Positions 32,442 through 52,502 of a stretch of 52,502 nt of DNA are shown piece after piece. The stretch is taken from positions 1 to 52,502 of the forward strand of contig CAMVKM010000002.1 in the NCBI GenBank assembly GCA_947168085.1. Direction: 5' to 3'. Every line of letters begins with the position of its first letter. Positions within the stretch are counted from its first letter, which is position 1. A model generated the notes under the pieces. That model was given only the letters and a program-made list of their open reading frames with translations, did no database searches and was not told where the DNA came from. The translations under genes were made by a program, and so were the position numbers. The stretch comes from an uncultured Clostridia bacterium. GTDB taxonomy: Bacteria; Bacillota; Clostridia; Christensenellales; UBA1242.

Positions 32442-35400
32442 TTAATTTGCGCTTACAAATGAAATTCTTGGATAATTTCCATCTTCAAATGTAAACACTG
32501 ATTTTTGTAAGTAAAGTGTTGAGTAAAAACATGCTGCAGTTGATGTGTAGGTTGGTGTTATGTCACTTGAAAGCACAAATGAAATTTCGGCTTCATTAGC
32601 CATTTTTCCATTTGACATGTAACTTTCTGAAACAAGAGATGAGTAATCTAAAGAGTACTCTGTTGAAATTAAGTTTCCAACACCAATAATACGCGTTGTT
32701 GTTGGGTTTTTTGTTGAGTCATAGTAGCTGTTTTTTGGCTTGTTGTTAACACTGTCAACCGAAGCCAAAATTCCACTGAAATAACTTGGACCGCTGTCAA
32801 TTTCAGTACCACGAGCAAATTTGTCTGATGTAAATTGAATTTCGCCAACATTAAGACAATTGATGATGGCTCCATAGAATTTGTCAGTTTGATTTGGATA
32901 CTGCTTTGCTTTTTGTGTTGCAACAATTCCACCAACTAAAATTGTGCTTTTTGTGTCATCAGTTGTTGAAATGTCCAAATGACTTTCAATTGTGTCTGCA
33001 ACAATGTTTCCACTGTTTATGCAGTTAACAATAAATGTGTTTGTTGCTTCACCCACAATTCCACCAGAGTAAGACCAATCTTCTTTTCCCAAGTTGTTGA
33101 TTGAGTAAGCATTAAGAACTCCATTGTTTGTGCAACCACTTACAACACTTGAAATTGTAACTTCTGAAAAAGCTTGAGCATTAATTGGTTGATAAGCAAT
33201 TTGTGAAGTTGATTTAAGAGTGATTCCGGCTACCTGAGTTGCAGCCAACAATCCGTTGTTTGCGCAGTTGTAAATGTTGGCACCATAACACTCTCCAGCA
33301 ATTCCAGCAACCCTTGTTGCCCTTGAACTTTGATCGGCTGTTTTTAACAATGAAATTCCAAAGTTTGAAGTACAATTTGTTATGGTTGTGTTGCGATAAG
33401 AGTTTTTATCTGAAACTGGCTCATAAGAACTTGAATCATACTCTTCTGTTCCACAAATTTTTCCAACAAACGTTCCAAAGACAATTGGTTGAGTTCCATA
33501 ATCATTGTTTGAAACATAACCCCTTGGATATTTTGTTTGGTCAAGACCAATCGAGCAGTTTGCAATTAATCCACCTGTCATTTGTTTTGCCACAATACCA
33601 AGATAAAGTGTGTTTTCTGATTCAATTGAAACGCTGTATTCAAATTTTGAAACCTCAATATCAAGATTCATCAAAACTCCACGCTGTCTAAAGAAGTTTG
33701 AAGAATTTGGTCCAATGCTTGGGTCTATCAAATCTTTGTTTGTGCCACCTTCAATTGTGTTAAACAATGGTTCACCACTGTAAATTTCAAAATTACTTAT
33801 TTTGTGAATAACTTGAACCACATCGCCATTTTCAATTTTTGTTTCCATTCCATCAATTCCACCAGTAAATGGCTTTATAAAAGACTCAGAGAATGAGAAG
33901 TTGTTTACAAATTCATTTGTTGAACCTGTTGGTGATGTTAGATTTATGTCTTCAGCAAGCCTAAAGAAACAAGTTGTTAAAGTTTTTATGTAACCAAACT
34001 TTGTTAAAGCATCTGTTCGTGACATAATCCAATGTTTGTTTCTTGGGTTTTGACTTGTTGGTGCATCGAGTGTTGATTTGATGACAAATGGATTTTCTGC
34101 TGAACCATTACCACTAGAAAATTTGTTAAACAAAACATGATTCATTGACCTTGGCGCACTTCTAAGGCTGTGAACATTTGAACTTGTTGTAACAACATAA
34201 AAATCAAAATTGTAGTATCCCAAATCCCACAAAGGAATGCTAAAGTAATTTAATCCACCTTCAGAAATTTGTTCTGTTTCTGACAAATTAATTTCTTTGG
34301 TTTTTGCTTGTGCAATATCAACATAGTCAAGGCCATCTTCTTCTATTTCATCATTTTCGTATTCTGAATACTTGTAAACCAAAACAATTTTGTCATTTGC
34401 AATGTTGTAAGCACTTCTAATGTCCATGTTCCAAAGCAGTTGCAATCCATCATTAGAAAGTTTACATGAATTTATTGGTGCAAATTTGATAGCATTAATT
34501 GTTTTGCTTTCACTAAAAAGATAAATTGGTTGACTAGCATCAATTCTTTCATTGTTTGGAGCATAAGCACGGTAAGTTATGTCAAGAGAAGCAAAGCCAT
34601 TTTGATCAATTTTTCGGTTTATTTCTTCACTGTTTATGTCAATGTTTTGCCTTTCTGTTGTTCTAACTTCTGTGTCGTCAACTTTTATGGCAATTCCTGC
34701 AACACTTGAATCATAAGCATAATCGCCACCCCAAGCAATAACACCATCTTCTGTGATTGTTACATCATTAATTTCATCAAGTTTAATAACATTTAATAAT
34801 GGTGTTGAATATGCTGAGTTCAAGTAAACTGTGGTTAAAATTTGTCTTGAATCTTCTGTTCCATAATGCCTAACTCTTATTGAACTAAACTTGTGGCCTT
34901 GTGAAGCAACTTCAGAAAGAGCGTTTGAGTTTTGTAAACTTCTTAAAGGCTCTAGTTTTGTTACGCCATCATCTAGCACGATTTCAAGCTCATAATCGCT
35001 GTATTTGTAAATGGCAGAACTATCTTCTTCCCAAGTCAGCACACCATCTTTGACGGTTAAATTTACTGGCCTTCCACGAATTTCAGCATAAAAACCATCC
35101 GTAAAATCACTTGACACATAGTCTTGCTGTCCACCAACAAGTGTTCCTATTGCGCAAATTTGAACACGAACACTGCTTCTAAGTTCAAAATGCTCACTCA
35201 AGAAAAAGTCTTCTTCTCTACCCACTTCATAAGTGTTTTCACCGCAAACAATTCTGTAACCACTCACATGATAAGAACCATAATCGTGTTCTGTGTTTCG
35301 ATACCAAACAATTTCACCATTTTCCACATGAACATCAGTTGGTGTTTGCAATTTTGTTACATTAAATGTGCTTCTTGCTGTTACAATAGAGTTGACATAA

Positions 35401-38400: not shown

Positions 38401-39701
38401 AAAATATAGTTACCACTAACCCTAAGGTTTTCAACAATGTCAAGTTTTTCCATGTCAATTTTTTGAACTGAGCTACTCAAAATTTCCTTACTATTTCCAA
38501 CAGTTTGAATCCTTAGTGTGTAGGCATTTGCTGAAACATCTTGAGTTAACATATCCAAAGAGAATCTCCCATTATTCTCAACAAAGCCATCTTCTATAGT
38601 TTTTAAGAGCACAGGACTTGATGATGAACTTGCCTTAGACCACACAAAAACAACATATCCACTAGCATTTGAAACTTTGTCCCAAGAAAGAACTTCGCCA
38701 CGATAAGACAAATTTGCTGGAACTGGCAATTTTTCAATTGCAACTGGCACCATATTTCTAGATTCAAAAATCTTTAATGCAGAATTTCCTGTTGTGGTAA
38801 TTTCAAACTCATAAGTTCCAGATTCAAAAGTTTTTGGAATGGTCCAGTAAATTTCATTGTTTGATCTCACAACGTCAAACACACTTGTGTCCACAATGTC
38901 TCCACGAATTGTTTCTCCGCTTTGAACTTTTGTTGTTTTAAAAAGGTCAAGCCTGTAAGACACATCCATTCTTCCAGTTGTCGTTGCTGAAATTTTGTCG
39001 TTTAACACATTAACATTACTAACTTGCGGCAAAATTTCAAAACTGTAAGAATCCGTTTCTTCCGAATCTGTGTAAAGAGTGGTAAAGTCATCTTCTGTCA
39101 CAACAGATTTTAGTGTCACTTCATATCTTCCAGAATCAGTCAGTTTAAAATTGGTTTTGCTCAAAATTTGTGGTTCTTGCTGTTCTCCATCTTTTGTAAT
39201 GCTTAGTTCATACTTTGGAGAGTAAGTTACAAATTCATCTCTTGCAACCACAGCGTCCCAAACCAAACTGGATGTTTGGTCATCATACTGCAAATTTTCT
39301 GGAGCACTTAATGCTTGAACATCTCCAACAATCGTAATAAAGCAAGTGTCACTAAAATTGCCATAGTCACTTTTCACAAAAACTTTTGCTGTGTATCTTG
39401 TCTTGTCATCAATCACTTTAACTTTTACAAGACCAGTGTTAGGGTCAACAGTTATGTGCTTGTCACTTTCTGCATCAGTAAAAAAACGAACAATTTTGTT
39501 TGTTGCCTCAAGCGGCATCAAGTTTACTCTAAGCTGAACATCATCACCTTGTGCAACAATGTACTGCGTTTGAGTAAAACTTAAACTTGTTACAGGAATA
39601 TCATCTTCTGAACACGCCACAAAAGCTGGCGCAAAAAAAGCCATTAACAAAACAAGAAAGAAAAGTTTTACGACCTTTGAAATTGTTTTTGCTCTCTCCA
39701 T
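32442..39701 (-). CDS. Giant (2,419 aa) lipoprotein: Big_2-like domain, at least 15 Fn3-like modules, C-terminal GLUG-type beta-helix
   Basis: A GGGAGA RBS lies upstream. The signal peptide MERAKTISKVVKLFFLVLLMAFFAPAFVAC has lipobox A-F-V-A-C (Cys30, 39612..39614). The Big_2-like segment is PVTSLSFTQTQYIVAQGDDVQLRVNLMP..ITVDPNTGLVKVKV. Repeated modules include VPANLSYRGEVLSWDKVSNASGYVVFVW and IVENLRVSGNYIFWSPVKNAANYFVYVNG. The C-terminal third opens with the GNGSAENPFVIKS entry motif and has GG(L/I)(I/V) ... NC.N.G repeats. Confidence 0.88.
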   Translation of the reverse strand: MERAKTISKVVKLFFLVLLMAFFAPAFVACSEDDIPVTSLSFTQTQYIVAQGDDVQLRVNLMPLEATNKIVRFFTDAESDKHITVDPNTGLVKVKVIDDKTRYTAKVFVKSDYGNFSDTCFITIVGDVQALSAPENLQYDDQTSSLVWDAVVARDEFVTYSPKYELSITKDGEQQEPQILSKTNFKLTDSGRYEVTLKSVVTEDDFTTLYTDSEETDSYSFEILPQVSNVNVLNDKISATTTGRMDVSYRLDLFKTTKVQSGETIRGDIVDTSVFDVVRSNNEIYWTIPKTFESGTYEFEITTTGNSALKIFESRNMVPVAIEKLPVPANLSYRGEVLSWDKVSNASGYVVFVWSKASSSSSPVLLKTIEDGFVENNGRFSLDMLTQDVSANAYTLRIQTVGNSKEILSSSVQKIDMEKLDIVENLRVSGNYIFWSPVKNAANYFVYVNGRNPYVDDPSNIQYNRPQNVLPSGNNDLRLDCASMKFVADGEFSGAQNVNVVSVVARMSYQDEDGQDVVVESVEPATLEIHKIAKANLKNCFGDVGWDALDGALNYEIIISKGNEVICQEVLSNDVLTYSFNDNSYTEQAGEYIVKVRGLGNGRNIRDGDEIVIDSTNRQNHTFTKQSAPIITAFSSEGVLVWEPGEFALDTTHYEISVFDVEQQDVAQTFNLLETSYDLSNYLSDYVGYGRYQFYINAVNDVSSIKYLNSERSEVVVPYKLATPQNLKISNGQFVWDEATNIVGVMEDIVVYEILIDGKNRINIDNFSNNPRTCLPTSAQMGAGSTCAVRIKTCVRKNSANSSNKRVLPDSQTVYVLDSSYSDSELFTRLASPKSPIIDKDENSSTSQMLVGDTIPTTTNYRVLLTYYTESISMQVKFEDVSCNQNDPIWSMSVSTLFTTNLDAGKYRATVVALGGDNYINSPESKSGASLYKLKTPELYIQDGVLHWSQVSGEIDGITTKINNYIINYRNTNTNTTATRSIEGTSWDMKGVAAGEYGISVTAVGVGSAIVSSRESVESSYRKLGAIDSNSIKIFKSSLLDNDTNYNTITWDSVARAQYRIKVYQILTNDVLKYDEVLETNSFVFDDTFASNRYYITVQAVYRGDFINGDISNQVFVNRLSTVTGISVNGTSSVVEETSSGKRLVDKNYLLSWDKINGAAGYTVSIKREGGGSTELQTINDPNTTSMYLIDSTINRGALGNSDVGLLGLTVTAKIDGSDENLVQKNGTLTISSATSQVKNIYRNRAPTINISDGKIVWTNNNVYDNGYMLVFSPTVQQVETVYVPIEGGVYSYDMSSTELADISRTYDGRPIYYNLSVIAVGNPSFYIQSIPEVFSVAGSGAVNIGKLQSVEDINVVNGEVEWGICGGISENELTYTTVATNGNNTVNYEDIRPQTGSNFVTLPRGAFAGLDGSISFTVQAKGTKGFSGVESYVYVNSIVTARSTFNVTKLQTPTDVHVENGEIVWYRNTEHDYGSYHVSGYRIVCGENTYEVGREEDFFLSEHFELRSSVRVQICAIGTLVGGQQDYVSSDFTDGFYAEIRGRPVNLTVKDGVLTWEEDSSAIYKYSDYELEIVLDDGVTKLEPLRSLQNSNALSEVASQGHKFSSIRVRHYGTEDSRQILTTVYLNSAYSTPLLNVIKLDEINDVTITEDGVIAWGGDYAYDSSVAGIAIKVDDTEVRTTERQNIDINSEEINRKIDQNGFASLDITYRAYAPNNERIDASQPIYLFSESKTINAIKFAPINSCKLSNDGLQLLWNMDIRSAYNIANDKIVLVYKYSEYENDEIEEDGLDYVDIAQAKTKEINLSETEQISEGGLNYFSIPLWDLGYYNFDFYVVTTSSNVHSLRSAPRSMNHVLFNKFSSGNGSAENPFVIKSTLDAPTSQNPRNKHWIMSRTDALTKFGYIKTLTTCFFRLAEDINLTSPTGSTNEFVNNFSFSESFIKPFTGGIDGMETKIENGDVVQVIHKISNFEIYSGEPLFNTIEGGTNKDLIDPSIGPNSSNFFRQRGVLMNLDIEVSKFEYSVSIESENTLYLGIVAKQMTGGLIANCSIGLDQTKYPRGYVSNNDYGTQPIVFGTFVGKICGTEEYDSSSYEPVSDKNSYRNTTITNCTSNFGISLLKTADQSSRATRVAGIAGECYGANIYNCANNGLLAATQVAGITLKSTSQIAYQPINAQAFSEVTISSVVSGCTNNGVLNAYSINNLGKEDWSYSGGIVGEATNTFIVNCINSGNIVADTIESHLDISTTDDTKSTILVGGIVATQKAKQYPNQTDKFYGAIINCLNVGEIQFTSDKFARGTEIDSGPSYFSGILASVDSVNNKPKNSYYDSTKNPTTTRIIGVGNLISTEYSLDYSSLVSESYMSNGKMANEAEISFVLSSDITPTYTSTAACFYSTLYLQKSVFTFEDGNYPRISFVSAN
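32750..34120 (-). other. GLUG-like beta-helix region of the 2,419-aa lipoprotein (approximate bounds)
   Basis: Motifs TGGLIANCSIG, VAGIAGECYGANIYNCANNG, SGGIVGEATNTFIVNCINSGNI and VGGIVATQ..GAIINCLNVGEI. These belong to the same repeat family as in the 1..3172 protein. Confidence 0.6.
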
Positions 39702-39797
39702 TTTTTATCTCCCAATTTTAATTTTTAGAATGCAACTTAAACGGTTAACTTTTACAAGTAAATTTACTAAGTTAGTTTAACCAAAGTTTATGTTTTT

Positions 39798-39826
39798 ATT
39801 ATAATATAATAAACAAAAAAAAGCAA
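39798..39826 (-). promoter_or_regulatory. Weak candidate promoter for the lipoprotein / giant B operon
   Basis: Minus strand reads TTGCTT (39826..39821), 17 nt spacer, TATAAT (39803..39798). An A8/T8 run (39815..39822) spans the -35/spacer junction. The -10 is about 90 nt upstream of the ATG at 39701. Only 3 of 6 positions match the -35 consensus. Confidence 0.3.
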
Positions 39827-40178
39827 ACAAAATGAGACCTTTTTTTTAATATTTTTTTCTACTAACCCAACATTTTTTTGCAGTTAAATATTGCTTTTTT
39901 GCATGCAAAACACACAAATTTTCACATTTTTTTAAAAAAATTGGGTTTTTTAACACTTTTTTAACGTTTTTTTGAATTTTTTTAAGCTATTTTTTGCAAA
40001 TTGTGATTTGGCTTTTTTCTTCTTCAAAAAAATTAAAATAAAAAATTTTTAGCAATTTTAAAAATATCAAAAAAATATTTTAAAAAAAACAACTTTTTTA
40101 TGTTTTTAAAACATTTTTAAAAACGTAAAAACCCAACAAAATTTTGTACAACTTGCACAAAAAAAATTAACTATAAAA

Positions 40179-40211
40179 ACAAAAAAAGTAAGACATTTTT
40201 GCCTTACTTTT
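40179..40211 (-). terminator. Candidate rho-independent terminator for giant A
   Basis: Minus strand reads AAGUAAGGC / loop AAAAAU / GUCUUACUU (one G-U pair) followed by a U7 run. It lies about 140 nt downstream of the stop at 40351. Confidence 0.5.
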
Positions 40212-40350
40212 TTAAAAGAGTAATGTTAAATTAACACAAAAATTGTAGGTGTTTTTTGTGTTGATTTTTAAATTGCTTGAGCATTGTTAATTTTATGTTT
40301 TCAACTTTTGCCTAAAAATTAACAAATTAGCAAAAATTGATTTTTTAGCA

Positions 40351-43300
40351 TCATTCTTCTTTACTTTCTACATGGCCTGTTCCCTTACATTTTGGACATT
40401 CTATGATTCCTTTTCCTCGAACATATGGATCAGCACCTATGTGCAAACCACCACCGGAACCACCGCAATTTTCACAACCATAATGAGTAAGATCAAACCA
40501 TCCTCCACTAGTGTAACCATTTCCATCACATTTTGGACATTTAATTTCACCAGTTCCACCACAGTCAGGACAAACATCCATGTTTTTAACATATTTGTAA
40601 GCTAAATCTTTTGCCCATCTGCCCGTCTCAACTTCAACACTAGCGCTCCAAGTGCACTCAGAAGATGATGAACTTGTTGCATTTCTCATGCTATATCCAG
40701 TGCTCTTTGACTCGGTCCATACTGTTTCACTTATTGAACCAGGACCACTAATTGTTTTTGATGAACTGCCTGACTTTGACCAACTGATAGAACCATGACT
40801 TACCTCATAAGTGTAAGTACTTCCATCTGAACGAGTTCCTGTTTTTGTTTCATACAAACTAGCACTACCACTACCACTACCAGAAAAGTTAAACGTTGCC
40901 GTTTTATTGTGAACATACTCAGCATCACCAGCACTTCCTGAAATGTTCATGCTACCACTTAAAGTCGATGCATTTACGTTTGTTCTGCCCCTGTAGCTTA
41001 CAGAATTTGAAGCTGAACCTGTTTCTATTCCTGATTGTGATCCAATATCAGCATCAGACAAATCAAATTCCAAAATTCCATCGTTCGGAATCAATTTTCT
41101 GTTTTGTGGATCATTTGGATTAGATAATGCAGTGTTTGCAAACACAGAATAAATTGTTAAATGAAGTTGTGAAAACTTTGTTATTTTGTTTGATTTTTCA
41201 GTGTTAACAGTAATATTAAAACCATCATCATTAATTCTTAATTGAAGTTGTTTACCAAACAACATTTCAAGAATTGAAGTTTCGTCAGTTATTGGCCTAT
41301 CCAAGAAATTATAAATAATTCCAGAATCATGCACTACTTCACAAGCATCTTCATAACTTCCCGAAGCCTGGCCTTTAAGTTCAAATTTCTTGTTAAAGTT
41401 GTAGGTTGGTGTTGTTGAATAATTTACATTTTTAATATATTCACGGTCACGATAGTAAATGGTTGCCTCAATTCTAATCGAACTTGGGTTGTCACCAGCT
41501 GATGCTGTTCCTTTTGTTTCAGCAATGTTTGATATTTTTCCTGTTTTTTCATCAACAGAATAATTAACAGTACCAACATCATCTTCTTCATCAAAGCCAA
41601 ACAACACTTTTCCATTGGTTTTCATTGATTCGGTTTCAACATTTGGAGCACCTGAAACTGTTGGAGTGAAACTGTCGACGTAGTCGACATCAAAAGTGAA
41701 TGTGTAATAGTAACCAATCTCATATTCAGGAACTTGAGATTCAACTTTAATTAAAATATGGTTTGTTCCAAGCTGGAATTTTCCTATTGCAGCTTCTCTA
41801 AAAATTCCACCATCAACAAGCTTTGAGGCCATTGATGCCTCTTTTCCTTTTGCATCATGCGCCGTAACCATTAACGCATCCCATGTTGTTGGATCTATGG
41901 TGTAAGAACGAGTTTTTACCCCTTGCATTTCTTTTTCTTTAAATTCTTCAACTGGATTGTCACCATTTGAGTTAATACTAGAATTTAAAGATTGTTGCTG
42001 CAAAAATAGTGTTGTAATTAAATTGTTATTATATTTAGTTCCCTTACCAAAAGCATTGTAACTTTCACTGTGTGTGTTGTATTTTGCTGACATATCATCA
42101 TTGTTTTGTGAAGCAAATGTAATTGATGTGCCATTTTGTTCTAGTGTGAAATCATTTTTTGCGTTTGTGTAAATTTTTCGATAAGTAAAGTTGTAAGAAG
42201 CACTCCAATCACTCATAAAAGTCATGTAAGTGTTAGAAAGTCGATACTTAACCTTATAAACGCCACCAGGGCTGTTTTGACAAATGTTGTTAAGCGCTAT
42301 GATTAAATCTTTGGCATTAAATTTACCATTAATTGTCTTTTCACCAACATCAACAACTTTAATTGTCCAGTTACTTACATAGTCATCACTAATATCGGCA
42401 TTTTTACCTGTAAGACCACTTATCTCTCCAACTTTGATTGCAGAACTGTTCACATTTCCATACGCTGCAGCATGTCTTTCTGGTGAATTGTCTGTTATTT
42501 CGTTTGCATTAACCATGTTGTTTGCGTAGGAATGGTCAAATGTGTAGGTTGTTGTTATGTTTCTAAGATGAGAAAGTTTTAGAATCAAATCAAATGGTGA
42601 TCCAACCCATTCTTCATGACCATAAATTCTTGAGGCCTGTCCATTTAAAGTTATATCATAAAATGGTTGCACACTAAACACCCAACTGGTGTGAGTTGCC
42701 CAATTTTTGCCATCAACATCAAACATAAATTTTGTTGAACCATTGCCATTGTTATAACAACTTTCAATTTGTTTTGCAAGGTTAACATAGGACTCACTGG
42801 ACCTATTTTCTAAATCAAACTCAAAACTTTCACGAAATGTTCCATTATCTTCATAAACATCAATCTTGTAATGTGTTGGATTAATTTTTAGGTTTTCAAT
42901 AAAATCATATGTGTAACGAAGTGGAATGAAGTTTGGTTTCAAAAGACCTGTATTGTTACTGCTTGGACTATCTTGAGTTTCTTCATTTGCCCATATGTCT
43001 GCGTCTTTGTCCATTTCATCAACCACTACTTCTGATGTTGTTGTTCGACAGTAAAACATTAATTCTCTGCTTCTCATTTGACTGTCAGTCCAAATTGAAC
43101 CCTGTTCTTTTAAGGACACAACCACTTCAAATCGAAGAAGAGCTCCCGGTGCTAAGCTGGTTCCTTCTCTTAAGAAATAATTGTAGATTTGACCATAAAA
43201 ATCATGGTTTTTTGGAGAACGACCGTTTTCTGGCTCATTTGAATCAACACGTTTAACACTGTTGTTTTCAATGTTTGTAAGATCTTGACTAAACATTAAA

Positions 43301-46300
43301 GCATTTCCCCAATAAACATTAAACATAAACGTAAGCCCAAGATCTTCACCATTAACGTTGTCATACTCCGAAGTTCCTTCATCTGGAATGATTACATAAG
43401 GATGGAAAACTTCATACCTTTTTGGAGTTTTGTTAGAAACTTTGTATAAAGTTGACACAACGCCATCAACTTTTGTCATTTCATACTCATCTAAGATGTT
43501 ACTTTCACCATCAAGCAATCCACCAAAGAAAAATTCTTTCATTCTGGATCCAGTTCCATTTTCAACCCATGAAAGTTGTTTTTTGAACACCACAACAAAA
43601 GCGCGATTATCATTTCTAAAGTTTCCTGTTTGCTTGTTTGGCTCGGTTTTTGAAAAAGACAAATAAGAAGAAAGTTTGTATTTTTCTTGACCAATGAAAG
43701 CCCTTGTTTCTCCAGTTTTTACTTGAGTTGTAAGCATGTCGTTTGGCTGAGAAAAATCAGTTGATGCGTAAATATCTTGACCTATTGGTTTTGAGTAGAA
43801 TCCCCAAATGTTCATTTGTGTTGTTGCACGTTTACATTCGTCAAGTGTTGTTGCTTTTAGATCAACACTTTCAAGCATAATGTCTTGAAGGAATGAATGA
43901 TTTGCTGTTGAACCCGGATAAATGTTTTCGGTTTTAAAATCAACAACTTTGTTGTTTTGATAAGATGTGTGAACGAGATACTCTGTTAACTCTCTTGAAT
44001 CAAACACTCGAGCAGCAAAAGTAAGTTTGTGTGGAACAAATGTGTCAATAAATAGCTTGTAAAGGCTTTTTCCATTTATGTTTTGAATACCCAAAGCATT
44101 TTGATAAATATTTAAACTTCTCTGATCCAAAACCATGGTGATTGTTTTCATGCTTGAGTAGTCGTCTTCGTCAACAAAAATCCAGTTTCCTTTAAATGCA
44201 TTAAAAGTTGTTTTTATGATAATTACTGAAGGGTCCACTCCGCCGTCACGAATAGTTGTTGCATCAAACCTGTTACTGTCTCTTAAAATGTCTACATCCC
44301 CTTTAATAAGATAAAGAGCAATTGAATCAGCACGTTTATCAACATTTGTTATAGTGATTGTCATTTTTGTGTCAGTAATAATATTCCCACGATCTTCAAC
44401 ATACTTAAGGACTGGACTGTCACCTTCATATTCAATAATTGGATCAGTTTGCCTGTTGTAGTTACCTTCAAACACAACTTCGTTAATAATTGGTACAGCA
44501 AAGCGAACATGATGATAGAACAAAAGTGTTGCGACATTGTTTGCTGCCGTGATTTGCTCTAATGTGTCTGGATCTTCAATAACAAGTTCTTTGCTTAAAA
44601 TTTTTCCACGAAGAAAGTAAGAACCTTCCACATTGTAGTAAATTGATTTGTCATTATCTTCACTGTAAACATCGAAAATCCACCCAAGTTTTATTGGAAT
44701 TGCACTAAATTCAATTGTTGTGTAGGATGTTTTCTTGACATTGCTTGCTGTTTCTGTGTTTTTGACATAATATTCATTAGTTTTCTTTGCGTAAACATAA
44801 TTAGCACTTGATGATGAACCAATGTTTGAGTACTCGGCAAGCACATTTCCGAAAACTTCGGAGTAATTGTCACTGCCCGTTTCATCAATTCTTACGTAAT
44901 TATCAAAGATTGTTATGTGATAGTAGTTTCCACCATCCCAATCTATTTTTATGTAGAATGGAGCATGAATGTTGTTTGTATCTGTTGCTGCCGATTGAAT
45001 CATAACCATTGCATAGCGCCAACCAGAAGCAAAAGGATTTGGACCAAGTATAAAGCCTTCAGTTCTAAGTGACAAATAAAGGTTGTGATAAACATTGTTT
45101 TTTGCAATGTCAAAATTATCATCTGCCGACACATAGTAGTAATTTTCTTGGCTTTGTTGGTTAGCTTTTATGGTTGAATAAGCTGTTGAAATTCCAAGCA
45201 TTGGCGCTTCAAGACCTTTTGCAAACACTTTTTGATAATTTGAAATGTTTGAGTCAAGCACAAATTCACTAAAGTTGTTTGACAAAACTTGGAAACTTAG
45301 GTTGTTTATGATTAAGTAAACAACACTTGGAGTGATGCACAAGACGTTGCTATCTTCTTCCAAATCAAACTTGTAGCTAAAATTGTAGTCAAAACCAGAC
45401 TCATTCATAAAAATACGTTTTTGATTTTCTGGAAGCACAATTGGGAAATCAATTTCTCCAGCAAATGTTTCTGGCTGCGATGCTGTTTGCAATTTGTTGA
45501 TGATATCAATCTTAGGCATGTTTAAAATTGGTGTTTCACTGTTTTTAAACACTGTTTTGTAGAACAAACAATTCCAAGAAAAACTTAATTCAAATATTTT
45601 TCCTTCTTGTTTAAGTTTTATGCTTGACTGATCTATTGGACTAAATTTAATGTAGTGAAGCATTGCATATTGATTTTGTTTTGATGTTTTGTTGCTGGAT
45701 TCTTCTGCAACTTCATCAACTTTGTTTCCATAAACTCTAAAGTAATGTGGACCATAAGCAAATCTGTAGATTTCAGCATATGGGTCATTTTCATCACAAA
45801 TATCTTTTGGCCAAAACATGGATGAAATGTCAATATAAATAAAACCATCAGCAAGTGGCGTGTTGCTTATTGGAACAAAAGTGTTTCCAACTTTTGACAT
45901 GTCTGCAGCAAGTGTTGGATCATAAAAGGCTTCGCCAGTTTTTGAATGTTTTATCGTGTAAGTATCTGGATAAGTTAAGGTGCCGCCCTGCAAACTTGGC
46001 ACAGCTTCAACCTTAAATTTAATATAAACTCTACGTTTGCTTTCATTTTCAGCCCACGCTGTTTTATGTTCATCTTTGTATGACTCAGGATCATTTTCAT
46101 GAATCATAGGTGTATCACTTTGATAAGGATAAAGTTCTTGATAAGCTGGATCATCAATTTTGTCAACGATAGAAACAGAGTTATCTATAATGATCCAAGG
46201 GGCAACAATAAGTTTGTGTGATTCAAATAAAACAGAATCTTTGTAAAGTGGGTTTTCTGGATGTTGTTTGTTGTAATCAGTTACAAGTGACAGAACAAGG

Positions 46301-49300
46301 AAATAACCACCCGAAATAAGTTCATCACTCTTAAACCATTTGTCATATTCATAAGTTTTCAAAATTGAGTTTAAATTAAAACTATAATTTGCAACAATGG
46401 TATTTCCATTCTCTGTGGTTTTTGTTGTTCCTTCTTCATCATACAAGAACATATCAAAACTCATTTTGTATGTTAAATCATGGTCTTCCAAATCAAGCCA
46501 ATCTTCTATTTGTTGTTGAGTAAATTTGCTGTAAACATAACTTCCTTCAGGAATTTCTGTTGTTCCAAGCTGATCTTCCATGTCTCTAAGACTTGTGTCG
46601 CGATATTTATTGAAAATATTGTAGTCAACACGCAAAACTTCAAGCATAAATTCAACACCTGGATTTTCACCATTAACTTGTCCATCAGTCCAAAGTCTGT
46701 CATCGTAAGAATAGTATTTGTTGAATTTGTTAGATAATTGCACTTCACCAGCAACTGAATCATCAGTGTCCGCTGTCGCCCAATTTGAACCATTTCCAAG
46801 TTTTCCACCACGAATAATTTCAGTCTCCCAAATAAAGTTTGGATCAGACATCAAAATATTGTGTGTTCTGTCATAAATTTCTGTGTAAAGTGGCAAATCA
46901 AGCCAACCATCAATAGTAGCGTAAATGCCTATGGTGTTACTGTTGTCTTCAAGGCTGTTGTCTGCCCACAAAACCTCATACAAACTTTGATGGAATGGTT
47001 TTAAAGGATTTTCACCCGGCTCAAGAGTATACTGTTGTGTGATCTTCAAATCATTTACTAAAATCACAAAAGTAACATCACGGCTTTGTCTTGTGTTGTT
47101 ACTAAAAGTCCAACTAAAGTCACCATAATTGTTTTCGTCAGTTTTGTCGTTGTTAAGACCAACATTTTGGATGTAAAGGTCAGCATAAGCTGCTCCCCAA
47201 TCTTTCCAAAATCTAAATGTTGTCTCTTTTGTGTCAAACATGTCTTGAAGTGTTGCATATGTGTCAATGTAGTTATATGCATTCAAGTCACTAGATGTTT
47301 TAAAGAACGAAACAGAACTAACTCCTGCTTGTGTTTTTATGGATTCACCACCACGAATAAGATCACGGAAACTTGAATTATAATGATAAACATCAACAAT
47401 TTCTGCTGTTGAATAAATGTAGTAAAGGTCATTAAAGTCAAGAATTGTTCGAATTATTCCATGGTCATTTACTTCTTTAAGTTCAAAAATTGTTTCTGTT
47501 CCAAAAAGTTTTTGTGTAAGTTCGTTAAGCTGGTAATGAACAGTGTAAATCCCATCTTCATCATCATCAACATAGGTAACATCAACAAAAGCACTAAATG
47601 TCGTAACTTCTCCTGCTGATGTTTCCATTGACACGTCATACTGAATTGTTAAGTTTAATGTTGGATCTAACACTATTGTGTAGAAGTTTGACGAATCAAG
47701 ATATCCACCCATTTCTTCAATACTCTTGTCAAACCATTCATAACCATGGTTGCTTCGTGTTTCCAAAATGTAACTGCCATTTTCTTGCAAAATTAAATCA
47801 GCATGAACTGTTCCAATGTGATGGCAATAAGAAATTGCTTTTGTTTCATTTAAATCACTGTTTAAAATAAAGTTGTTTAGGTCTTCTTCACTTGAAATCC
47901 ACTTTGTTTTGAAGAAAAAGTTTGCATAACTCATAAGAGTAATGTTTTTAAGAACGAAGTTAAACACAGACACAGTAGGCTCAACTTGTCCTAAAGCATT
48001 TTGTTTTGTTCTTGCTTGTTCTTTCCACAAAAATTGTCCATCAGCATCAAAACACCAAACTTCAAAAAGCGCATCAATTTCACTAATTCCATGTTGAATT
48101 TTTAAATCATAAAGTGTGTTGTAATCGTCAGTTCTGTATTCAACAGCTTCAAGTGAAACATTGCCAATCATGTGTCTTTGATAAATTGTGAGTTTTTCAA
48201 TATTTTTAAGACCAAATGTGTAATCAAAAAGATTTGTGTCACTGTAGTAAACGTGGTCACCAACAGCAACAAGTTTTAAATAATAAAGCCCTGGAGAAAG
48301 ATCAAAACTTTGTGTTTGAAGATCTAAAAGACTCAATTTTAAAACTCTAATATTAGCAAACACCGCTTCAGAAACTAGGCATGTTGGCATCTCGGTTTGC
48401 AATGCTGTTGAAAGGGCTGTGTTAACATCAATGTTTTCTTCTTCCGTTAATCCAACAGCGTTTTGATACTCAATTTGAACTTTGTTTGCATCAACTTGAA
48501 CAAATCTGGCAACTTTAAGTTCAATATCAAATCTTTCATTAATATGTGCAAACGCCCTGTTAACCGCACTTTCAATCATTTCAGCTGTAATAGTAGAATT
48601 TGATGAAGAAATTTCAATCAAACTTCCATCTTGATAAAAATAAATATCAAATGACTCAACACCAACTGGTTTATCAACACTTCTTCTAACTGTTTTTATG
48701 TTGAAAATGTAACTATCAAGATGAGCATTAACAATCTCCAGCAAACTTTGGTCTTCAACATAAATTGGTTCACCATAAGTGCTGTGAGTCTCATCATTTG
48801 GTGTGTGGTCAGCGTATTGAACATAGCTGTCCACAACAACATCAACATATTCAATACTTGCATCCAAAACTAGTTGTCTGTTGTTAATAAATTCATGTTC
48901 AACAGTGTCACCAATTCGCTTGTAAGAATTTGCACCAACAGGAACAACTGTTATGTAAAACTTGTAGTCCCCAGCCGGAATGGCTTCAAGAAATTCTGTA
49001 AGATTTAAAGAAATTTGAGTGTTTTGTGCACCTTCGATGTAGAAATTCTCACCGGCGCCATTGTAAATGTAGTAAACTGGAGCAACTCTAGTTGTTGATA
49101 TACCTGCTTTTAAGTAATAAATGCTTGTAACATCGCCCAAAACAGCATCATGAAAAATCATTTCTTCGCCATCAAAATTCTTAACTTGAATTTGAAATGC
49201 TGAACTTGAAAAGTCATCATTTTGCGCTTTAAATTTTAAAGTTTTGCTTCTTTCACTGCCCAGCAAAGTGTAATCTTCTTCAAAAACATAATTTGGATCA

Positions 49301-52300
49301 AAAACTGTTCCTGCTTTTTCATAAATCATCAAGTCAACACGGCTTTCACCAAAACCCTCATAACCTTCGCCTGGTTGAGTTTGTCCACCTTGTTGTCCAC
49401 CAAAAGGATTGTGTGTTGAAATGATGTTTTTTGCTTTATCAGAAGCAACAACTCCCCAAAGACTGTAAATGCCCTTTTCAATAAATGGAACAACACTTCC
49501 ACCTTCATCTTTTGTTAGTGATTGAAGTTTGTTTATCCACTCTGTTATGTTCGCGCTATAAGAAATTGAATTTTCATCACCTAAAAGATTTATTTGAATT
49601 GGTGTTTCAAATTCATCCACACTAACGCTTCCCAAAACAGAAGTTGTGTTGTCCCCATTAAATGTTGGAACTGTTATGGTAATTTGATCGTAAGGATAAC
49701 ATGTTTGCAATCCCCCCATTCCATCATCAACAACATAACACCACTTGCCTTCGCCATCAAGAACAAAACTGTTAGACACAACAAAGTAGTCACTTAAAAC
49801 AAAGTCATATTTTGTTGCCACATTTTTGTCATCATTTGCCTTTGTCGCTTTCCAAGTAAGTGTGTAATCTGTTAAATCTTCACTTATGGACAAATTTAAC
49901 CAAACTGTTCTAGAAATTTCAAGCGGAAGATTAACTTCACGATAAATGGTTCCACCCCTAAAGATTGTGTGAACTTTTTCTAATTCATCAGTAACATAAA
50001 AATCTGAAACAACCATTGTAATAATACAATCACGAACAACTGATGTTAACTGAGATTCAAGATTTAATCGAGTTTTTCCAGCTTCAGTTTGAAAATCACT
50101 GTCTTGCGATATTGCATTATAAACAAGAGTTGCATAACCTTCTCGGTCTAAGTAAACCGTGTAAAGAAGATTTTTTGAGTGGTTTGAAAGCAAAACTTCT
50201 GAAACGTCATTAAATGGATCATCCCAAACAAGGAAGTAAGTTCCATCTAAGTCAATTGTCATGTCAAAATAAGGCAAATCAACTCCACCCACATAAAATG
50301 TGTCGTAGACAACCGCTGAAAAACCAACAATTTCAGTGTTTGATTTCGAATAAACCAAAGCACCATAAATTTTCGTGTAGTCACTGGCATCAAAATTTTG
50401 AATTACAAACGAATTTTCTGTTGTTGTAAACCAAAAATCCATGTCTGACACACTGTCATAAAGATCAGCGTAATCTTCAAAATTTTCATTGTAAAATGGA
50501 TAATTTTCTGATTCACTTGTGTAAGAAAAGTAAAGTTTGTTCAATCTTTGTTCAAGATAAACATCTTCCATAACTCCACCGGTTGTTTTATCATAACGGT
50601 AAAGTTTTACCGTGTTTTGTTCTATGTCCCACTCATAGTAAACATAACCATATGAAGAACCTTCAACAGCATCCCAAGTAATTGTTCCATCAGAAAGCAT
50701 TTTAAGGTTTGTTGGTGCTGGCGTTCTTAATGATGTTATGATTGTGTAAGATTTTGCTTCTGACTCAGTTTTAAACACAAAACTTTCTGGCATTGGGTTT
50801 GAAATCATTTCTTGATAAGCATCTGTTGGGTTTGGATACTTGTCAAGTTTTATCACATGTTCAAAATCAGTTGATTGTGTTGCATCAAAACTTGCTGCTG
50901 TTACTGAAAATTCAAAGTTGTAATCAAATGTTTGCCATGTAATGACGCCCCCAAGGCCTCTTGGATCAAAGCCATTTATGTAACCAATTGGAATTTTGTA
51001 CTTAAACAAAATTGATGATTCGGTTTCTTCATAATTGTAGTAATATGATGAATCTTGATTTATGCCAAGTTCAAAATTAGTTGTTTGTGGCACAAAATTT
51101 GCTTCATCACTTTTTGTTGAAATAGTTAAATTAAAACCTTTAAAGTTGTCTGTAATCAAACTTTTTAATGTTAAAATGCTTACCAAAACTGGAGTTGTTG
51201 AACCAATTTCACCTGGAGTAACAACAACACTTTCAACAGGGTCAAGAGTGCTGGCATAGTAAACATAAATTGGGTTAGACCAACCACTTTCAGTTGCTAT
51301 GGAAGTCTCTTGGAATTTTATGGTAATTTCATAAATGCCCTGCTTGCTCTCAAAAAGTTCTTTTGTATCAATAAAATAACCATAAAACTCTAAGGTTCTT
51401 GAAACTCTCATAACATTTATGTCTTTAATTTCTTTGTCTATGACTGTGTTTCCATAAACATTTGAAATTGAAACAGTTATTTTGGCGTTTGTTTTTGAGT
51501 TGTCATAATTGCTGTTTGCTGTTTGTTCAATGTAAACAAGATTTTGTTTTGTTGCCAATTCATCACTTGTAATGTAAGCTTTTAAAAGTGCGTCATTATC
51601 TTCCTTAAAACCAATTCGTGGAGCACGAATGCTGATTGACTTTGGTTTAAAGCCACGAGCTGTAGGAGCAGAATCTTTAAAATGTTTAGCATCATTTCCA
51701 AGCACAACAAGTTCCAAACGATAGCTGCTTCCAGAAATCATTCCTGTCATGCCATAGTATTTGAAAGTGTAAGTGTCAGTTTTTTCTTCTAGTGTTGCAA
51801 TCAAACTTGTTTCTGTTGTCGAAACTTGTTCTAAAACAGTCCAAATTCCATCAATCAAAACAAATTCGCGTTCCATAGAATCAACAAATGTAAATCCATT
51901 GTCTGTTGCCTTTATTGCAAAAGTTATCATAATTGAAGTGCTTGCAACATTAAACAAACTTAATTTGTAACCACCAGCATCAACTGCTTCAATTTGGCCA
52001 TCTTCTGTTCTGTTTTTTCCTTGAATTTTGGCAAAAGTTGCATTAAGTGTTGGCACTGTTTGTCCATCTTGTTGACTGCCCGTAAAACCATCAACAAAAT
52101 CAATTCTTGAACTATCAAAAATTTGGCTTACTTCGTAAACAATTTCTGCACTTCTTTCACTTGAAACACACGTTCCATCTTCTTGAATCCATGATGTGTT
52201 GCTTGCAACAACAAAAATTCTGTAATTTCCATTGCTTACATTGCCAGCATTTAAGTAGTCACTTAAATTTGTGCTTAATGTTATGGTGTTGTTTGAAAAT

Positions 52301-52502
52301 GTTAAATTTGTTCCTTCAGTTTCACCTGTTTGTGTGTTAAAACCACCAAGTAGTTTGATGTTTGGCTCAAATTCTTCTGTTTCATAATCATAATAAGCAT
52401 AAACAGCATAAAAGTTTGCAAAATCATCTTTTGTTATTTCAATTCTTGAACCCTGGCTTGTTACAACTGGTTTTCTGATAACTGGATAGTATTCAAACAA
52501 CG
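40351..52502 (-). CDS. Giant surface protein, collinear paralogue of giant B (giant A). It is partial, with the 5' end beyond the right edge and at least 4,049 aa in the window.
   Basis: The reading frame is open to the window edge. The track's M1 is a TTG at the edge, not a real start. Its first residues FEYYPVIRKPVVTSQGSRIEI align with residue about 1175 of giant B (FEYLPILDAPVVTLNGTQLQI). Collinear matches continue to the C-terminus, for example NIWGFYSKPIGQDIYASTD vs NIWGFYQTPIAQDIFVSTD and ILKLSHLRNITTTYTF vs VLKLSHLRDISAKYNF. It ends with four CxxCxGxG repeats. Confidence 0.9.
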   Translation of the reverse strand, partial: LFEYYPVIRKPVVTSQGSRIEITKDDFANFYAVYAYYDYETEEFEPNIKLLGGFNTQTGETEGTNLTFSNNTITLSTNLSDYLNAGNVSNGNYRIFVVASNTSWIQEDGTCVSSERSAEIVYEVSQIFDSSRIDFVDGFTGSQQDGQTVPTLNATFAKIQGKNRTEDGQIEAVDAGGYKLSLFNVASTSIMITFAIKATDNGFTFVDSMEREFVLIDGIWTVLEQVSTTETSLIATLEEKTDTYTFKYYGMTGMISGSSYRLELVVLGNDAKHFKDSAPTARGFKPKSISIRAPRIGFKEDNDALLKAYITSDELATKQNLVYIEQTANSNYDNSKTNAKITVSISNVYGNTVIDKEIKDINVMRVSRTLEFYGYFIDTKELFESKQGIYEITIKFQETSIATESGWSNPIYVYYASTLDPVESVVVTPGEIGSTTPVLVSILTLKSLITDNFKGFNLTISTKSDEANFVPQTTNFELGINQDSSYYYNYEETESSILFKYKIPIGYINGFDPRGLGGVITWQTFDYNFEFSVTAASFDATQSTDFEHVIKLDKYPNPTDAYQEMISNPMPESFVFKTESEAKSYTIITSLRTPAPTNLKMLSDGTITWDAVEGSSYGYVYYEWDIEQNTVKLYRYDKTTGGVMEDVYLEQRLNKLYFSYTSESENYPFYNENFEDYADLYDSVSDMDFWFTTTENSFVIQNFDASDYTKIYGALVYSKSNTEIVGFSAVVYDTFYVGGVDLPYFDMTIDLDGTYFLVWDDPFNDVSEVLLSNHSKNLLYTVYLDREGYATLVYNAISQDSDFQTEAGKTRLNLESQLTSVVRDCIITMVVSDFYVTDELEKVHTIFRGGTIYREVNLPLEISRTVWLNLSISEDLTDYTLTWKATKANDDKNVATKYDFVLSDYFVVSNSFVLDGEGKWCYVVDDGMGGLQTCYPYDQITITVPTFNGDNTTSVLGSVSVDEFETPIQINLLGDENSISYSANITEWINKLQSLTKDEGGSVVPFIEKGIYSLWGVVASDKAKNIISTHNPFGGQQGGQTQPGEGYEGFGESRVDLMIYEKAGTVFDPNYVFEEDYTLLGSERSKTLKFKAQNDDFSSSAFQIQVKNFDGEEMIFHDAVLGDVTSIYYLKAGISTTRVAPVYYIYNGAGENFYIEGAQNTQISLNLTEFLEAIPAGDYKFYITVVPVGANSYKRIGDTVEHEFINNRQLVLDASIEYVDVVVDSYVQYADHTPNDETHSTYGEPIYVEDQSLLEIVNAHLDSYIFNIKTVRRSVDKPVGVESFDIYFYQDGSLIEISSSNSTITAEMIESAVNRAFAHINERFDIELKVARFVQVDANKVQIEYQNAVGLTEEENIDVNTALSTALQTEMPTCLVSEAVFANIRVLKLSLLDLQTQSFDLSPGLYYLKLVAVGDHVYYSDTNLFDYTFGLKNIEKLTIYQRHMIGNVSLEAVEYRTDDYNTLYDLKIQHGISEIDALFEVWCFDADGQFLWKEQARTKQNALGQVEPTVSVFNFVLKNITLMSYANFFFKTKWISSEEDLNNFILNSDLNETKAISYCHHIGTVHADLILQENGSYILETRSNHGYEWFDKSIEEMGGYLDSSNFYTIVLDPTLNLTIQYDVSMETSAGEVTTFSAFVDVTYVDDDEDGIYTVHYQLNELTQKLFGTETIFELKEVNDHGIIRTILDFNDLYYIYSTAEIVDVYHYNSSFRDLIRGGESIKTQAGVSSVSFFKTSSDLNAYNYIDTYATLQDMFDTKETTFRFWKDWGAAYADLYIQNVGLNNDKTDENNYGDFSWTFSNNTRQSRDVTFVILVNDLKITQQYTLEPGENPLKPFHQSLYEVLWADNSLEDNSNTIGIYATIDGWLDLPLYTEIYDRTHNILMSDPNFIWETEIIRGGKLGNGSNWATADTDDSVAGEVQLSNKFNKYYSYDDRLWTDGQVNGENPGVEFMLEVLRVDYNIFNKYRDTSLRDMEDQLGTTEIPEGSYVYSKFTQQQIEDWLDLEDHDLTYKMSFDMFLYDEEGTTKTTENGNTIVANYSFNLNSILKTYEYDKWFKSDELISGGYFLVLSLVTDYNKQHPENPLYKDSVLFESHKLIVAPWIIIDNSVSIVDKIDDPAYQELYPYQSDTPMIHENDPESYKDEHKTAWAENESKRRVYIKFKVEAVPSLQGGTLTYPDTYTIKHSKTGEAFYDPTLAADMSKVGNTFVPISNTPLADGFIYIDISSMFWPKDICDENDPYAEIYRFAYGPHYFRVYGNKVDEVAEESSNKTSKQNQYAMLHYIKFSPIDQSSIKLKQEGKIFELSFSWNCLFYKTVFKNSETPILNMPKIDIINKLQTASQPETFAGEIDFPIVLPENQKRIFMNESGFDYNFSYKFDLEEDSNVLCITPSVVYLIINNLSFQVLSNNFSEFVLDSNISNYQKVFAKGLEAPMLGISTAYSTIKANQQSQENYYYVSADDNFDIAKNNVYHNLYLSLRTEGFILGPNPFASGWRYAMVMIQSAATDTNNIHAPFYIKIDWDGGNYYHITIFDNYVRIDETGSDNYSEVFGNVLAEYSNIGSSSSANYVYAKKTNEYYVKNTETASNVKKTSYTTIEFSAIPIKLGWIFDVYSEDNDKSIYYNVEGSYFLRGKILSKELVIEDPDTLEQITAANNVATLLFYHHVRFAVPIINEVVFEGNYNRQTDPIIEYEGDSPVLKYVEDRGNIITDTKMTITITNVDKRADSIALYLIKGDVDILRDSNRFDATTIRDGGVDPSVIIIKTTFNAFKGNWIFVDEDDYSSMKTITMVLDQRSLNIYQNALGIQNINGKSLYKLFIDTFVPHKLTFAARVFDSRELTEYLVHTSYQNNKVVDFKTENIYPGSTANHSFLQDIMLESVDLKATTLDECKRATTQMNIWGFYSKPIGQDIYASTDFSQPNDMLTTQVKTGETRAFIGQEKYKLSSYLSFSKTEPNKQTGNFRNDNRAFVVVFKKQLSWVENGTGSRMKEFFFGGLLDGESNILDEYEMTKVDGVVSTLYKVSNKTPKRYEVFHPYVIIPDEGTSEYDNVNGEDLGLTFMFNVYWGNALMFSQDLTNIENNSVKRVDSNEPENGRSPKNHDFYGQIYNYFLREGTSLAPGALLRFEVVVSLKEQGSIWTDSQMRSRELMFYCRTTTSEVVVDEMDKDADIWANEETQDSPSSNNTGLLKPNFIPLRYTYDFIENLKINPTHYKIDVYEDNGTFRESFEFDLENRSSESYVNLAKQIESCYNNGNGSTKFMFDVDGKNWATHTSWVFSVQPFYDITLNGQASRIYGHEEWVGSPFDLILKLSHLRNITTTYTFDHSYANNMVNANEITDNSPERHAAAYGNVNSSAIKVGEISGLTGKNADISDDYVSNWTIKVVDVGEKTINGKFNAKDLIIALNNICQNSPGGVYKVKYRLSNTYMTFMSDWSASYNFTYRKIYTNAKNDFTLEQNGTSITFASQNNDDMSAKYNTHSESYNAFGKGTKYNNNLITTLFLQQQSLNSSINSNGDNPVEEFKEKEMQGVKTRSYTIDPTTWDALMVTAHDAKGKEASMASKLVDGGIFREAAIGKFQLGTNHILIKVESQVPEYEIGYYYTFTFDVDYVDSFTPTVSGAPNVETESMKTNGKVLFGFDEEDDVGTVNYSVDEKTGKISNIAETKGTASAGDNPSSIRIEATIYYRDREYIKNVNYSTTPTYNFNKKFELKGQASGSYEDACEVVHDSGIIYNFLDRPITDETSILEMLFGKQLQLRINDDGFNITVNTEKSNKITKFSQLHLTIYSVFANTALSNPNDPQNRKLIPNDGILEFDLSDADIGSQSGIETGSASNSVSYRGRTNVNASTLSGSMNISGSAGDAEYVHNKTATFNFSGSGSGSASLYETKTGTRSDGSTYTYEVSHGSISWSKSGSSSKTISGPGSISETVWTESKSTGYSMRNATSSSSSECTWSASVEVETGRWAKDLAYKYVKNMDVCPDCGGTGEIKCPKCDGNGYTSGGWFDLTHYGCENCGGSGGGLHIGADPYVRGKGIIECPKCKGTGHVESKEE
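40375..40572 (-). other. Canonical four-repeat DnaJ-type zinc-finger module at the C-terminus of giant A
   Basis: CPDCGGTG, CPKCDGNG, CENCGGSG and CPKCKGTG all match CxxCxGxG. Only 7 residues (HVESKEE) follow before the stop. A Ser/Gly/Thr-rich low-complexity stretch precedes the module. Confidence 0.8.

Follow-up and report, generated by a model that had tools for sequence, protein, structure and literature searches.

The stretch of DNA analysed here, hereafter the window, is the entire 52,502-bp contig CAMVKM010000002.1 of an uncultured Clostridia bacterium of the Christensenellales (GenBank assembly GCA_947168085.1). Three giant open reading frames (ORFs) lie on its minus strand: A (40351..52500, open to the window end), C and B, in the direction of reading. 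B is followed by the gene of a 515-residue protein, D515, and then by aspS, the ABC-F gene abcF, cysS, a gene for a SLOG protein and a gene for an MGDG-synthase-like glycosyltransferase (Table 1). GC content is 0.33-0.35 throughout, A and B are alike in composition, and no stop codon occurs inside either ORF. A and B are genuine full-length paralogues, both intact in the sequence present. Because the window is the complete contig, the 5' end of A is missing.

Table 1. Features of the giant-gene locus, with positions in the window
Feature	Position	Strand	Description	Basis
Giant A, A-type paralogue	40351..52502	-	C-terminal 4049 codons and stop; about 1,166 codons of the 5' end lost at the contig end	ORF list, translation
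Giant B, B-type paralogue	16310..32413	-	Complete, 5367 residues; identical to database protein P0001	ORF list, translation
A-type-specific insertion	48310..48591	-	About 95 residues (A 1304-1397)	Family alignment: present in A and P0002, gap in B, P0003 and L2p
Hydrophobic segment of B	32255..32341	-	Residues 25-53, the only such segment in B, after the basic stretch KSKERRSR	Hydropathy scan
N-terminal module array of B	28664..32251	-	Degenerate FN3-like modules of about 100 residues, B residues about 55-1250	hhalign block against block, 7-sequence alignment, probability up to 93%
C-terminal zinc-finger motif of A	40375..40572	-	DnaJ-like; four CxxCxGxG units at residues 3977, 3988, 4009 and 4035	Regex scan
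C-terminal zinc-finger motif of B	16457..16684	-	One degenerate CxxC and three CxxCxGxG units (5268, 5286, 5312), then a 48-residue tail	Regex scan
Terminator-like hairpin	40182..40213	-	14-bp stem, then T-run, about 140 nt past the A stop	Terminator scan, sequence read
A-C intergenic region	39702..40350	-	649 bp, AT-rich, promoter-like hexamers; GGGAGA ribosome-binding site 8 nt before the C ATG	Consensus matches only
Giant C	32442..39701	-	2419 residues; lipoprotein-type signal (..FFAPAFVAC/SEDD), FN3-like modules, C-terminal GLUG-like repeats	
D515	14704..16251	-	515 residues; K/E-rich N-terminus, one internal transmembrane segment (about 133-153), acidic C-terminal part	
aspS	12585-14429	-	614 residues as listed, from a TTG start	
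SLOG-family protein (LDcluster4/STALD)	8819-9478	-	219 residues	Between cysS and the glycosyltransferase gene in all related loci
MGDG-synthase-like gene	7551-8864	-	437 residues as listed, from a TTG start	

The original prediction had described the two giants as strictly collinear over about 4,100 residues and had proposed a pairwise protein alignment, which was performed with BLASTP and, globally, with MAFFT. Both returned a single, unbroken diagonal and not a few short motifs. By BLASTP, residues 1-1308 of A aligned with residues 1174-2439 of B (35.0% identity, 684 bits, E=0), residues 1400-3702 with 2438-4945 (31.6% identity, 931 bits, E=0) and residues 3915-4044 with 5173-5321 (28% identity, E=3e-5), and no off-diagonal segment pair was found between them at E<1. 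The MAFFT alignment, which spans residues 1174-5324 of B, held 1351 identities over 3739 aligned columns (36%), leaving about 310 A residues unpaired in B and about 410 B residues unpaired in A. All 200-residue segments of A fell in order on B, each with 24-49% identity. The seven anchor pairs noticed by eye were all recovered, at offsets of 1037-1196, a spread in keeping with collinearity interrupted by insertions and deletions. The break between the two large BLASTP segment pairs coincides with the insertion specific to A-type proteins.

At the DNA level the two genes are 52% identical over aligned codons (0.52, 0.60 and 0.44 at codon positions 1, 2 and 3, respectively), the longest exact word common to both measures 23 nt, and the top blastn matches cover 57-273 nt at 66-87% identity. 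From these values there is no sign of a recent duplication or of gene conversion between A and B, and recent gene conversion was rejected on the length of the longest common word. The earlier observations that no near-identical DNA is shared and that both copies are open thus stand.

Homologs of the two giants are very rare. A family profile was searched with hmmsearch against 1.84 billion cluster representatives and retrieved four proteins only, each a singleton cluster: P0001 (the B protein), P0002 (5248 residues), P0003 (5305 residues) and the more distant P0004 (4320 residues). Two members were also found in the metagenome-assembled genome (MAG) CAVEAP01, a GTDB representative, namely L001 (partial, A-type) and L002 (4827 residues, B-type). 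No relatives of the giants were detected in JGI metagenome contigs (two scans) or in viral contigs. A word-index homolog search with a piece of 1000 residues and a conserved piece of 231 residues gave no match although the collection holds B, so that this index evidently misses these giants. Among known families, A, B, L2p and P0004 have no match in Pfam or NCBIfam except zinc-finger families that score below threshold at the C-terminus, and relaxing Pfam to E<=5 yielded nothing further in A or B. Searches of the PDB with 4- and 6-sequence family profiles gave no significant match; a cadherin match with E=0.08 was dismissed.

The members fall into two types. Identities range from 54 to 71% within A-type (A, P0002 and L1p; A is 56% identical to P0002 and 54% to L001), from 42 to 59% within B-type (B, P0003 and L2p; B is 44% identical to P0003 and 42% to L2p, its positional homologs) and from 35 to 39% between the types; every member is 27-28% identical to the outgroup P0004. 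A phylogeny of the homologs had been suggested earlier, and a neighbour-joining tree rooted on P0004 was built. It has the topology ((A,(P0002,L1p)),(B,(P0003,L2p))), with bootstrap values of at least 98.5%, on 967 and on 2745 columns. Because the A-type and B-type clades mirror each other in the rooted tree, the sequences indicate that the two types split once, before at least three sampled lineages diverged, and that both have been kept since.

The A-type relatives also give an estimate of the missing end of A. The TTG listed as its start (52500) is an internal leucine codon, equivalent to residue 1174 of B and to residue 1167 of P0002. P0002 possesses a B-like transmembrane (TM) anchor and N-terminal region, and L001 reaches 294 residues further towards the N-terminus, in a segment alignable to B from residue 888 onwards. 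Since residue 1 of A aligns to residue 1167 of the 5248-residue P0002, full-length A should comprise about 5,200 residues, in line with the length above 5,000 that had been anticipated for an A with a B-like N-terminal section.

The mirrored clades bear on the question of whether A and B could be alleles of one locus from two strains, joined in a chimeric contig here and co-binned in the other MAG. In favour of this, the contig was assembled from a metagenome, the locus is known to harbour very divergent alleles within a species, the A-type gene of MAG CAVEAP01 lies on a separate 4.6-kb contig, and no independent contig was found across the A-C junction. However, with 23 nt as their longest common word, A and B offer no repeat on which a mis-join could form, and the A-C junction resembles a normal terminator-promoter intergenic region. 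A-type proteins have their own signature, made of the 95-residue insertion and four canonical zinc-finger units. Moreover, a distinct A-type clade accompanies B-type in each of three lineages with the same branching order, so that an artefact would need the same mixture of two kinds of strains in every sample. We give this explanation hardly any credence.

The gene order giant-D-aspS-abcF-cysS-SLOG-MGDG is identical in the window, in locus L004 (CAVEAP01) and in locus L005 (Logan SRR19415688), where D515 homologs follow the B-type giants L2p and P0003 (L004 7942-9471; L005 8045-9559). L004 and L005 belong to conspecific genomes. Between them, amino-acid identity is 100% for aspS, 99.4% for abcF, 99.2% for cysS, 99.1% for SLOG and 98.1% for MGDG, and it drops to 60% for the D protein and to 44% for the giant over its 3' half (59% over full proteins). 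At the nucleotide level the two loci agree at 96.9% of positions over 11.7 kb, up to about 300 bp upstream of aspS, where identity drops sharply to 66-76%. This switch lies around locus position 9689-9730 and is a candidate recombination breakpoint, bounding the cassette on one side. Synonymous divergence (dS, Nei-Gojobori) amounts to 0.07-0.12 for the flanking genes and rises to 0.63 for D and 1.00 for the giant; the ratio of nonsynonymous divergence (dN) to dS, at most 0.1 in the flanks, reaches about 0.44 in the giant. As a roughly ten-fold synonymous excess cannot be produced by protein selection alone, the alleles must greatly predate the strains that carry them. Judging from these sequences, the divergent alleles must have been imported by recombination or held by long-term balancing selection.

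The same pattern extends to larger evolutionary distances. AspRS of the window species is 94% identical to that of L004/L005, and the giants are 42-56% identical. In relatives whose AspRS is 79-82% identical, giants of 5971 and at least 2580 residues occupy the same locus, with patchy similarity of 22-28% to A/B or none. The contigs carrying these giants are L006 (1-7457 and 20983-21749), L007 (3-7745) and L008 (2-4189). A second giant of 2856 residues lies on the same contig as the 5971-residue one, and a gene of 560-584 residues on the opposite strand takes the place of D515 in these relatives.

These distances bear on the age and on the origin of the pair. A and B are about as far apart (dN 0.62, dS 1.46) as B is from its positional homolog in the sister species with 94% identical AspRS (dN 0.64, dS 1.53). 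The duplication had been called ancient: this holds in the order of the tree, the split preceding at least three lineages, but not necessarily in time, the age being relative to the fast clock of the family, and 36% identity is no proof of great age in so fast-evolving a family. As judged from the sequences, the data would fit a duplication within the genome and the capture of a second divergent allele alike.

According to the latter explanation, A-type arose as a foreign allele inserted beside the resident one, i.e. as a pseudo-paralogue or xenologue, and not by tandem duplication. Allele exchange is demonstrably active at the locus, since B-position alleles within one species are only 44-59% identical, with dS of about 1.0 against 0.1 in the flanks. 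The A-B dN of 0.62 is not above that of the sister-species positional homologs, and the unrelated C stands between A and B. A itself looks like a transcription unit separate from C-B, with its own terminator, because a terminator-like hairpin follows its stop and the AT-rich spacer carries promoter-like hexamers. Conversely, A-type and B-type form two clean clades whose internal branching is the same, which calls for a single origin before the sampled lineages split. A and B do not differ in composition (GC 0.33-0.35), and the end result, two homologs side by side, is as for duplication. We regard capture of a foreign allele as rather unlikely. In the A-C spacer, Logan contigs of two bovine gut runs join position 39938 to position 40063 through 26 unrelated letters, which may correspond to a variant spacer in related strains or to a chance match in AT-rich sequence.

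As for the architecture of the giants, the hydrophobic segment near the N-terminus of B has counterparts in P0002, P0003 and P0004, which show the same basic tail and single hydrophobic helix and no other TM-like segment. It is predicted to be an N-in signal anchor, or else an uncleaved signal peptide or one with a long n-region. No hydrophobic segment was found by the hydropathy scan in the portion of A inside the window. The array of FN3-like modules comes next in B, and its counterpart in A lies mostly beyond the contig end. An iterated module HMM (hidden Markov model) detected 4 strong copies in each of B, P0002 and P0003 and 3 in P0004. When a profile of 17 N-terminal modules was compared with the PDB, 8 matches out of 8 were FN3 domains, with marginal E-values of 0.02-0.6 (GH31 C-terminal FN3, fibronectin, tenascin). 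The Pfam fn3 family matched none of the giants, and Tissue_fac, a family of FN3 fold, gave weak matches (E=0.01) in P0004 and in C. Between residues of about 2100 and 5367, B contains no internal repeats at the profile level, the maximal hhalign probability being 39%. The composition of the giants is rich in N, S, T, D and Y.

At the C-terminus, a Ser/Thr/Gly-rich stretch precedes the zinc-finger motif. The four units of A (CPDCGGTG, CPKCDGNG, CENCGGSG and CPKCKGTG) lie within 66 residues (3977-4042); P0002 also has four canonical CxxCxGxG units, and P0004 lacks the motif. The Pfam family DnaJ_CXXCXGXG scores 12.7 bits in A and 12.9 bits in B, below its cut-off of 32.7; Anti-TRAP scores 14.2 bits in B, also below threshold, and PDB profile matches to DnaJ CR domains have E-values of about 0.13-0.16. 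In P0003 (about 5215-5290) and in L2p, the B-type proteins of the CAVEAP01/SRR19415688 species, about 45 hydrophobic residues rich in Gly and Ala, ITGGGALSAATIATLGSGGTLIVPAAIFTAVSTAAGAGAGAI, split the motif and may form a second membrane segment.

Variation at the C-terminus could suggest a system of contact-dependent competition akin to polymorphic toxins, in which the giants would act as filaments that deliver variable effectors at their C-termini, and D515 as the cognate protective or partner protein. The C-terminal fifth of B-type proteins is indeed their most variable part (28-38% identity), D515 is hypervariable along with the giant, and alleles are replaced at the locus between strains. 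But the divergence runs along the full length with no motif demarcating its onset, the extreme C-terminus, i.e. the zinc-finger motif, is conserved, and Pfam revealed no toxin, Rhs, haemagglutinin-repeat or pre-toxin domain. D515, a membrane protein of 515 residues, is also unlike typical small immunity proteins. Polymorphic toxin and contact-dependent inhibition systems combine a conserved delivery region, a demarcated variable C-terminal toxin and a small immunity gene, a pattern that A and B do not follow. Such a function is quite improbable.

The neighbours of the giants are themselves informative. C contains many FN3-like modules of the pattern 'P.NL...W' and a GLUG-like region of the pattern 'GGIVG..N..I.NC.N.G.I'. 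It has no homology to A or B at the BLASTP level, yet the N-terminal module HMM of the A/B family also matches its residues 840-927. A homolog of C (28% identity over about 1,000 residues) lies directly upstream of P0004 (L003 1-2970), and the pairing of C with a giant of the A/B family is thus conserved. In the window, B starts 28 nt after the C stop. D515, in which Pfam detected no domain, follows the B-type giant in every case.

Taken together, it seems fairly probable that A and B are paralogous surface fibres of an orphan family, encoded in a hypervariable cassette next to aspS that is exchanged in the form of old alleles. Their basic tail, of the positive-inside kind, followed by a single N-terminal helix predicts export by Sec, which would leave the basic tail in the cytoplasm and a remainder of about 5,000 residues outside the cell, either held at the membrane by the helix or released from there. 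The N/S/T/D/Y-rich composition, the FN3-like modules and the presence of lipoprotein and membrane-protein neighbours point to long, mostly beta-rich surface fibres, which might serve as an adhesin or a protective coat. B belongs to what looks like an operon, preceded by the lipoprotein giant C and followed by the TM protein D515; both neighbours are conserved and are putative partners. The candidate zinc finger could act as a folding nucleus, in oligomerisation or in docking to D515 or C. Cassette alleles would be swapped in by recombination instead of evolving in place, and the joint hypervariability of A-type, B-type and D would suit an exposed structure whose variants are selected in a diversifying or frequency-dependent manner, for example by phage, host immunity or competitors. 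The data demonstrate that A and B are paralogous, collinear and intact, when they split relative to the sampled lineages, how rare the family is, its synteny and a signature of allele replacement; we infer export, surface location, fold, zinc binding, partnership with C and D515 and selective agent. Why both copies were retained had been attributed to sub-functionalisation, antigenic alternatives or a heteromeric assembly; among these, hypervariability within a species favours an antigenic or diversifying role.

Several points weigh against this interpretation. A search for RNA-seq runs returned none. The adjacency of A and C is seen on this one metagenomic contig only, as Logan contigs of 150-350 nt do not span the junction. 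P0002 and P0003 may derive from different genomes, and the recombination that moves alleles may also blur the gene tree. The picture of a beta-rich fibre is drawn from composition, FN3-like motifs and marginal profile matches, and AlphaFold2 runs on two-sequence alignments produced unusable models (mean confidence, pLDDT, of 36 for residues 1401-2000 of A and of 29 for its last 170 residues). A Cys4-type zinc finger is unusual in an extracellular domain. Motif and Pfam scans found no recognised wall-anchoring device (LPXTG, SLH, CWB or SH3b): LPxTG and YSIRK motifs are absent from A, B, P0002 and P0004, and A and B have no C-terminal hydrophobic segment.

A more specific version of the surface-fibre interpretation is offered tentatively, as a possibility somewhat open to doubt. 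The giants would constitute an undescribed family of about 5,300 residues, represented by four clusters among 1.84 billion representatives, with about 3,200 residues that lack any detectable internal repeat and resemble nothing known, and with a DnaJ-type zinc-finger end. An obligatory pair of A-type and B-type proteins, together with C and D515, would form a surface structure, and its cassette would be kept as ancient divergent alleles within species and exchanged by recombination. If true, the locus would be the protein counterpart of the serotype loci for capsule or O-antigen, made of genes of 12-16 kb.

Among known systems, the locus most resembles the Giant1-5 cluster of Apilactobacillus kunkeei, sharing with it clustered giants, paralogy and recombination among positional homologs. 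Giant1-5 are consecutive genes of a Firmicute whose genome is small and low in GC, and they encode extracellular proteins of 3,000-8,000 residues (Tamarit et al. 2015; Pedersen et al. 2026, PMC12863079). They are thought to derive from duplication and divergence, with recombination contributing to their diversification; each is nearer to its positional homolog in other strains than to its neighbours, and they are rich in N, S, T and D (PMC12863079). They possess a cleaved Sec signal peptide, no TM segments, N-terminal beta-solenoids, long imperfect internal repeats of mostly alpha-helical structure and C-terminal DUF5776/SH3b-like domains, their paralogues being less than 20% identical and positional homologs within the species 60-100% identical (PMC12863079). 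Similarly, A (at least 4049 residues) and B (5367 residues) exceed 3,000 residues and lie on the same strand, with C (2419 residues) between them. In contrast to the A. kunkeei giants, about 3,200 residues lack any detectable repeat and degenerate modules occupy only the N-terminal 1,200 residues or so; there is no DUF5776/SH3b-like or other Pfam domain, and a CxxCxGxG motif stands at the C-terminus; A and B are collinear at 36% identity, and conspecific positional homologs fall to 44-59%. The profile search of 1.84e9 representatives, which returned only the four family members, gave no sign of similarity to Giant1-5; no pairwise test with A. kunkeei sequences was made.

Other giant proteins of bacteria share fewer traits with A and B. 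LPXTG giant adhesins (serine-rich repeat (SRR) proteins, Ebh-like proteins, MSCRAMMs) have in common with them great length, N/S/T-rich composition, a probably fibrous nature, the Firmicute surface, an N-terminal export signal and frequent strain variability. Unlike these adhesins, A and B have no LPXTG, YSIRK, SRR or FIVAR/GA repeats and no C-terminal wall or membrane anchor, and they are largely non-repetitive. Over the entire A and B proteins, the strongest similarities in Pfam and the PDB, weak as they are, point to the Cys-rich domain of DnaJ/Hsp40 (PF00684, with the offshoots Anti-TRAP and BSD2): A-type proteins have four CxxCxGxG units with DnaJ-like spacing and B-type proteins three to four. 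Here, however, the motif ends a predicted extracellular protein of 5,000 residues and not a cytosolic chaperone, and the scores are far below threshold. The giants of Omnitrophota and other phyla likewise are rare, very long and poorly annotated bacterial ORFs for which a role at the cell surface has been suggested; they are rich in TM regions, carry divergent helicase domains of the SecA DEAD type and can exceed 30,000 residues (West-Roberts et al. 2023, bioRxiv 10.1101/2023.11.21.568195), whereas B has a single TM helix, no SecA/DEAD match and about 5,300 residues. A and B are best filed as a new protein family on the theme of clustered paralogous giant surface proteins.

Most giant bacterial proteins owe their length to the repetition of modules or to chains of known enzymatic domains. 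In the present family, an uninterrupted run of over 3,000 residues without detectable repeat or homolog is open in two paralogues and in several lineages. Because this repeat-free core has been kept open in both paralogues and across lineages, length itself appears to be under selection. The locus is also an unusually clean natural experiment, in which some 300 bp separate housekeeping genes of 98-100% identity from 16-kb genes of only 44-59% identity, saturated at synonymous sites. If the phenomenon is general, uncultured gut Clostridia would vary their surface by exchanging genes of giant proteins, with a bearing on interactions with phages and hosts in rumen and gut, on the tracking of strains, since such loci break assemblies and bins, and on the origin and persistence of very long non-repetitive ORFs.

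Regarding the host, its AspRS is closest to those of 'Clostridia bacterium' MAGs (66-72% identity), a CotF gene lies near the locus and near-identical fragments occur in bovine gut metagenomes. The host is an uncultured Clostridia bacterium of the bovine gut, low in GC (34%) and probably spore-forming. A phage or plasmid origin of the locus was considered and is unsupported, the flanks being housekeeping genes in conserved order and no viral contig matching. No Rfam match and no tRNA were found in the window.

The TTG starts listed for aspS and for the MGDG-synthase-like gene are probably placed too far upstream: the homologs have 583 and 414 residues and align only from residues 33 and 23 onwards, respectively. 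Finally, at the other end of the window, a large ORF runs off its start (2-3199, minus strand, at least 1066 residues), with an N-terminal TM segment after MKTNKSFKGF..., and immediately upstream of it lies an ORF of 333 residues (3200-4201, minus strand) with hydrophobic N- and C-terminal segments. Both have similar modules of the pattern '..G.Y.AT..L.D..NY.W', and since these modules are common to the two, surface-protein genes would also be present beyond the housekeeping block.

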